Positions 61,227 to 62,126 of a DNA stretch of 64,000 nucleotides are shown here, in pieces. Position 1 is the stretch's first letter. Each line of letters starts with the position of its first letter. A program made the position numbers and the translations under genes. The notes beneath the pieces were generated by a model that worked only from the letters and a program-made list of their open reading frames with translations, ran no database searches and was not told where the DNA came from. Source of the DNA: Escherichia coli O127:H6 str. E2348/69 (GTDB lineage: Bacteria; Pseudomonadota; Gammaproteobacteria; Enterobacterales; Enterobacteriaceae); NCBI RefSeq assembly GCF_000026545.1, contig NC_011601.1. The stretch is one strand, 5' to 3'.

Positions 61227-62126
61227 ATGACAAATACAGCAAAAATACTCAACTTCGGCAGAGGTAACTTTGCCGGACAGGAGCGTAATGTGGCAGATCT
61301 CGATGATGGTTACGCCAGACTATCAAATATGCTGCTTGAGGCTTATTCAGGCGCAGATCTGACCAAGCGACAGTTTAAAGTGCTGCTTGCCATTCTGCGT
61401 AAAACCTATGGGTGGAATAAACCAATGGACAGAATCACCGATTCTCAACTTAGCGAGATTACAAAGTTACCCGTCAAACGGTGCAATGAAGCCAAGTTAG
61501 AACTCGTCAGAATGAATATTATCAAGCAGCAAGGCGGCATGTTTGGACCAAATAAAAACATCTCAGAATGGTGTATCCCTCAAAACGAGGGAAAATCCCC
61601 TAAAACGAGGGATAAAACATCCCTCAAATTGGGGGATTGCTATCCCTCAAAACAGGGGGACACAAAAGACACTATTACAAAAGAAAAAAGAAAAGATTAT
61701 TCGTCCGAGAATTCTGGCGAATCCTCTGACCAGCCAGAAAACGATCTTTCTGTGGTTAAACCGGATGCTGCAATTCAGAGCGGCAGCAAGTGGGGAACAG
61801 CAGAAGACCTGACCGCCGCAGAGTGGATGTTTGACATGGTGAAGACCATCGCGCCATCAGCCAGAAAACCGAATTTTGCTGGGTGGGCTAACGATATCCG
61901 CCTGATGCGTGAACGTGACGGACGTAACCACCGCGATATGTGTGTGCTTTTCCGCTGGGCCTGCCAGGACAACTTCTGGTCCGGTAACGTGCTGAGTCCG
62001 GCCAAACTCCGCGACAAGTGGACCCAGCTCGAAATCAACCGTAACAAGCAACAGGCAGGCGTGACAGCCAGCAAACCAAAACTCGACCTGACAAACACTG
62101 ACTGGATTTACGGGGTGGATTTATGA
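61227..62126 (+). CDS. O: replication initiator O
   Basis: 299 aa starting MTNTAKILNFGRGNFAGQERNVADLDDGYARLSNMLLEAYSG, essentially lambda O. Confidence 0.95.
   Translation: MTNTAKILNFGRGNFAGQERNVADLDDGYARLSNMLLEAYSGADLTKRQFKVLLAILRKTYGWNKPMDRITDSQLSEITKLPVKRCNEAKLELVRMNIIKQQGGMFGPNKNISEWCIPQNEGKSPKTRDKTSLKLGDCYPSKQGDTKDTITKEKRKDYSSENSGESSDQPENDLSVVKPDAAIQSGSKWGTAEDLTAAEWMFDMVKTIAPSARKPNFAGWANDIRLMRERDGRNHRDMCVLFRWACQDNFWSGNVLSPAKLRDKWTQLEINRNKQQAGVTASKPKLDLTNTDWIYGVDL
61576..61660 (+). repeat. ori-lambda iterons (four direct repeats) inside O
   Basis: tccctcaaaacgaggga, tcccctaaaacgaggga, tccctcaaattggggga, tccctcaaaacaggggga followed by AT-rich tract. Confidence 0.9.

Follow-up and report, generated by a model that had tools for sequence, protein, structure and literature searches.

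The gene O, which encodes the origin-binding initiator and itself holds the origin, occupies positions 61227-62126 on the plus strand of the window, i.e., the 64-kb stretch of DNA from Escherichia coli O127:H6 E2348/69 analyzed here, and reads as an uninterrupted frame of 299 codons. The window corresponds at 100% identity to positions 992001-1056000 of the record LT827011.1 of this strain. The prophage that carries O and the origin is PP4, an assignment made on the strength of the effector table in PMC2697328 and the RefSeq annotation. According to the latter, PP4 continues past the end of the window with lysis, head, and tail genes, followed on its far side by effector genes, namely nleG-like (DUF1076), nleB2, nleC, an nleH fragment, and nleD; this effector set is the one listed for prophage PP4 (PMC2697328). 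The O protein belongs to PHROG 277 ('replication initiation O-like') and is identical to lambda O at all 299 residues. Its gene differs from that of lambda at 17 nucleotides and from that of phage 21 at 2, all of these differences being synonymous. A megablast search of the open reading frame against 50,697 phage records returned 171 matching records, headed by phage 21, O276, lambda imm21, and phi458 at 99.7-99.8% identity and followed by lambda isolates at 99.0%. The Pfam domain Phage_rep_O covers residues 22-115 of the protein and thus ends just ahead of a series of iterons that begins at codon 117. The cis-acting origin sits where the gene codes for the linker of the very protein that binds it.

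A repeat search revealed a single direct-repeat family of four copies (61575-61594, 61595-61614, 61619-61638, and 61642-61661). The iterons proper, all on the plus strand and 17-19 bp in length, span 61575-61660 and encode O residues ~117-145. Iteron 1 (ATCCCTCAAAACGAGGGA, 61575-61592) corresponds to lambda 39034-39051, annotated there as 'ori iteron 1'; iteron 2 (ATCCCCTAAAACGAGGGA, 61595-61612) to lambda 39054-39071; iteron 3 (ATCCCTCAAATTGGGGGA, 61619-61636) to lambda 39078-39095; and iteron 4 (ATCCCTCAAAACAGGGGGA, 61642-61660) to lambda 39101-39118/9. The 19 bp equivalent to iteron 4 are annotated as a gpO binding site in the phage 21 record. Centre-to-centre spacings are 20, 24, and 23.5 bp, or about two helical turns, and the cores, of the form TCCCTC...GAGGGA, have partial dyad symmetry, 8-14 of their 17-18 positions being self-complementary. 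A minus-strand terminator-like hairpin at 61612-61597 coincides with iteron 2 and was discarded as an artefact produced by the symmetric iteron and the T-rich spacer after it. When the core TCCCTCAAAACGAGGGA was searched for with up to three mismatches allowed, exactly these four iteron sites were found in the entire window. Dinucleotide-preserving shuffles (n=100) yielded a mean of 0.11 such sites, and none of the 100 reached four. An origin of the repeats by chance or low sequence complexity was rejected outright on these counts; the identity of 131 bp with lambda and the conservation of the element in 1331 E. coli genomes speak against it as well.

Directly to the right of iteron 4 lies an AT-rich tract with A-strand bias (61661-61704, plus strand), the presumptive unwinding element, which is identical to that of lambda. 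Its 44 nucleotides (CACAAAAGACACTATTACAAAAGAAAAAAGAAAAGATTATTCGT) comprise 25 A, 8 T, 5 G, and 6 C; A+T amounts to 77.5% across the first 40 of them (61661-61700), and the 40-mer of lowest GC content in the whole O gene (GC 0.20) begins within the tract, at 61662. The preliminary description of this DNA had placed four iterons followed by an A-rich segment in-frame within O at 61576-61700. Repeat search, base composition, and the 299-codon frame bear this out, the coordinates being right to within a few bases of the fuller extent of 61575-61704. It had also held that a lambda-type origin is kept. An alignment with the lambda ori upholds this claim: 61575-61705 (131 bp) matches lambda 39034-39164 at 100% and is likewise identical in phage 21, as seen in a three-way alignment, so that iterons and spacers carry no difference from lambda at the positions contacted by O.

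In lambda, four iterons and an AT-rich tract, located midway along O, together constitute ori-lambda, the site of O-some formation and transcriptional activation (PMC7466680, PMC3985674). O footprints these sites in lambda, the sequence being identical to that in PP4, and it is established that this same sequence binds O, unwinds at its AT tract, and supports replication dependent on O and P (PMC7466680). On the basis of this identity, the element within O of PP4 is almost certainly ori-lambda, a lambdoid theta-replication origin. A competing reading attributes the retention of the repeats solely to the repetitive peptide segment of O that they encode (IPQNEG/SPKTRD/SLKLGD/PSKQGD) and denies them a role as DNA-binding sites. 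The repeats do lie in-frame in coding sequence, and a test for extra conservation of the origin core was not significant: none of the 17 differences from lambda falls within the 131-bp core, as against 17 gene-wide, which gives P = 0.067 and does not decide the matter taken alone. However, the iterons start in codon phases 0, 2, 2, and 1, and since three different phases are used, the repeated unit is DNA rather than peptide. Each unit furthermore displays the dyad symmetry expected of a site bound by a dimer, and the sequence is that of the lambda sites footprinted by O (PMC7466680). The peptide reading is accordingly given next to no credence, and the element is treated as ori-lambda in what follows.

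The origin is accompanied by a full set of lambdoid replication functions. The gene for the DnaB helicase loader P (62123-62824, plus strand; Pfam Phage_lambda_P, 3.6e-62) encodes a protein with four conservative amino acid changes relative to lambda P (V63L, T117I, A194S, and I222L) and two differences from that of phage 21. It is followed by ren (62821-63111, plus strand), annotated as 'protein ren' in RefSeq, with two amino acid differences from lambda Ren. Upstream of O, the pO promoter and the oop antisense RNA with its terminator are assigned to 61140-61252 on the minus strand. A scan detected a minus-strand promoter-like element (TTGAGT-17-CATAAT) at 61252-61224 as well as a terminator-like hairpin with a T-run on the same strand at 61170-61143, and 61133-61226 differs from lambda 38592-38685 at two positions. 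Since the Rfam search of the whole window at the gathering threshold gave no match in the ori/oop region, the oop call draws on lambda identity together with the promoter and terminator scan. In lambda, pO/oop lies next to ori-lambda and influences initiation there (PMC3985674). At the right-hand side, a tR2-type intrinsic terminator (63137-63168, plus strand), identical to lambda and recovered by the scan as the hairpin AGGCCTGCTGGTAATCGCAGGCCT followed by TTTTTATTT, closes the conserved block. Taken as a unit, the segment comprising pO/oop, O, P, ren, and tR2 (61133-63177) is 98.5% identical to lambda.

To place the limits of this block, the entire window was compared by BLASTN with lambda and phage 21, and a 20-nt sliding comparison was added. 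Homology to lambda extends from ~61141 (lambda 38600, the 3′ end of oop, within the end of cII) to 63177 (lambda 40636, just before ninB), whereas homology to phage 21 begins at 60866, includes the whole cII gene, and ends at the same position, 63177. The cII gene of PP4 is of the phage 21 type. A 108-aa open reading frame with a hydrophobic N-terminus (63184-63510, plus strand; phrog_5903, without a Pfam match) starts 7 nt past this right-hand end, between tR2 and a diverged ninB. The preliminary description regarded the origin as a marker of a mosaic boundary. This applies to the block as a whole, which is bounded at ~61141 and 63177 relative to lambda, but not to the iterons and AT tract themselves, which lie in the middle of 2 kb of conserved sequence.

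To the left of the block, sequences of several types alternate. In cro and the N-terminal half of cI, PP4 matches the immunity region of 2B8, Stx2 phage 1717, YYZ-2008, and 'CP-933H' at 98-99% identity; over its C-terminal half (59770-60181), cI aligns with the lambda gene at 93% nucleotide identity. The cI gene (59771-60466, minus strand) is consequently a hybrid that combines a lambda-like C-terminal Peptidase_S24 half with a helix-turn-helix half of the Stx2-1717/2B8/CP-933H type, and because its halves are of different types, a recombination joint must lie within it. N, too, is of another type. The position of lambda rexAB is occupied in PP4, between N and cI, by a BRO-family gene (58848-59690, minus strand; 280 aa, phrog_8036), which resembles a moron inserted into the immunity region. 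Where lambda has ral/sieB, PP4 harbors a 156-aa open reading frame (57608-58078, minus strand; phrog_1636, without a Pfam match) situated between N and the ea10-like gene. Farther to the left, a recombination module as in P22 (54966-56487, minus strand), made up of the anti-RecBCD protein Abc2, SSB, and an Erf-like annealase, replaces lambda exo/bet/gam and is followed by kil, a 44-aa cIII-like open reading frame, and the ea10 gene. The ea10 region (57037-57598) is 98% and int/xis 84% lambda-like. The view put forward earlier that the immunity and early-left genes are heterologous is therefore supported, as seen in cro, the N-terminal half of cI, and Erf/Abc2/SSB, with the qualification that heterology is not uniform along the flanks, the C-terminal half of cI, ea10, and int/xis being lambda-like.

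At the int end, PP4 directly adjoins torS (48679-51422), a gene marked in RefSeq as carrying a frameshift. Measured over 40-mers, GC content falls to its minimum for the window (0.125-0.15) at 51442-51454, in the gap between torS and int, and this AT-rich stretch is probably the att junction. The only Rfam matches in the window, all outside PP4, are a cspA-type thermoregulator upstream of cspG (46550-46972), a PyrD leader (860-933), and a tRNA-Ser (27643-27727), all of which are ordinary chromosomal features.

In PP4, the origin is predicted from its sequence to fire by the route established for lambda, each step being carried over from that system. Upon derepression, rightward early transcription from pR would express O and P, and by crossing the origin would activate it. 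Dimers of O would bind the four dyad-symmetric iterons through their N-terminal domains and wrap the intrinsically bent iteron DNA into an 'O-some', which in turn would destabilise the adjoining AT-rich tract. P would then deliver the host DnaB helicase to the O-some, and its release by DnaK, DnaJ, and GrpE would allow replication to begin. The gene order assumed by this scheme is kept, cI reading leftward and cro-cII-O-P rightward, with the tR1 region as the sole intervening terminator. A simple sigma-70 consensus scan of the cI-cro spacer (60467-60540) gave no plus-strand match for pR; isolated phages, among them 2B8 and Stx2 phage 1717, nevertheless carry the same spacer at 98-99% identity. 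It also contains a 13-nt direct repeat, TGTATTTTT(G/T)CTT, at 60475 and 60507, which is possibly operator-related.

The genes for the tape-measure protein and the J tail-tip protein, beyond the window end, are annotated as frameshifted in RefSeq. This suggests that PP4 is tail-defective despite its intact replication module, although the frameshifts could alternatively result from an assembly error. PP4 may hence be replication-competent yet not particle-competent, since with tape-measure and J frameshifted it may make no infectious particles even if it replicates. The same annotation, together with the failure of the simple scan to detect a pR consensus, lends some weight to the view that ori-lambda in PP4 is competent but a silent relic, the prophage being defective and its origin never firing, or firing only non-productively, in situ. 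Against this, O has no amino acid changes and P only conservative ones in comparison with the viable phages lambda and 21, and isolated phages have an almost identical immunity region. In addition, all 17 differences between PP4 O and lambda O are synonymous, which points either to purifying selection that has not ceased or to an acquisition in the very recent past. A silent relic is therefore considered unlikely, at roughly one chance in four. A separate proposal, regarded as improbable, is that the O/P/ori module is kept for a role beneficial to the host, i.e., escape replication or interference with superinfection, rather than for phage propagation. If escape replication were to occur, SOS-induced firing in situ would transiently amplify the neighbouring chromosome along with the nleB2/nleC/nleD/nleG cargo. 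If interference were the benefit, the resident copy of ori and O would hinder superinfection by phages equipped with the lambda replication module; an inhibition phenotype dependent on ori-lambda has been reported (PMC3349717).

That PP4 carries ori-lambda is known biology, as the preliminary description stated, and the element is very widespread in E. coli. Of 5426 complete E. coli genomes, 1331 contain the 161-bp ori segment, and 879 records do so at ≥99% identity. Because about a quarter of the complete genomes possess this segment, its presence in PP4 is to be expected, and the significance of the finding beyond annotation is slight. What it does establish is that a prophage carrying type III secretion system effectors has a complete replication module of the lambda/phage 21 type, consisting of pO/oop, O with ori, P, ren, and tR2, and that the recombination joints of this module are fixed at ~61141 (~60866 relative to phage 21) and 63177. 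It also illustrates lambdoid mosaicism, a near-lambda replication cassette being combined with a different immunity and a P22-type recombination module.

Lambda (NC_001416), in which 'ori iteron 1-4' are annotated at 39034-39118 inside O, shares with PP4 the iterons, the spacers, the AT tract, and the O protein, as well as the flanking order of pO/oop, O, P, ren, and tR2. The two differ by the 17 synonymous substitutions, all in the rest of O and including an A-to-C change at 61706, to the right of the AT tract. They also differ upstream, where cII, cro, the operators, and pR of PP4 are of other immunity types; for this reason the homologous block does not take in the 'ice' site annotated in lambda cII (38543-38557). 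The description of the module as lambda-type is thus accurate with regard to the iterons and the O protein, but its nearest relative, judged by differences in O (2 nt versus 17), is phage 21 rather than lambda. The record of phage 21 (OL657228; see also AJ237660) labels the matching bases 'rep_origin: ori lambda 4 iterons for gpO binding' and adds four gpO protein_bind features; of the 900 nt of O, 2 differ from PP4 and leave the protein unchanged, and homology reaches further left than that of lambda, through cII. Despite this closeness, phage 21 and PP4 show no nucleotide-level relationship in cI, cro, N, or the operators, and phage 21 integrates at icd whereas PP4 resides next to torS. The Stx phages P27, 933W, and BP-4795 employ O and P proteins of the same family but have six-iteron origins. 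Iterons 1, 2, and 4 are the same as in PP4, the AT tract is identical, and P27 carries a C at the position equivalent to 61706, as does PP4. In contrast to PP4, the Stx origins contain a 39-bp insertion that gives rise to two extra iterons and 13 additional amino acids in O, together with a G-to-A change in iteron 3, the one position at which this iteron of P27 differs. The insertion and the change in iteron 3 alter O-some packing and host-factor dependence (PMC7466680). As the alignment with P27 demonstrates, the PP4 origin is of the canonical four-iteron form and not of the Stx form.
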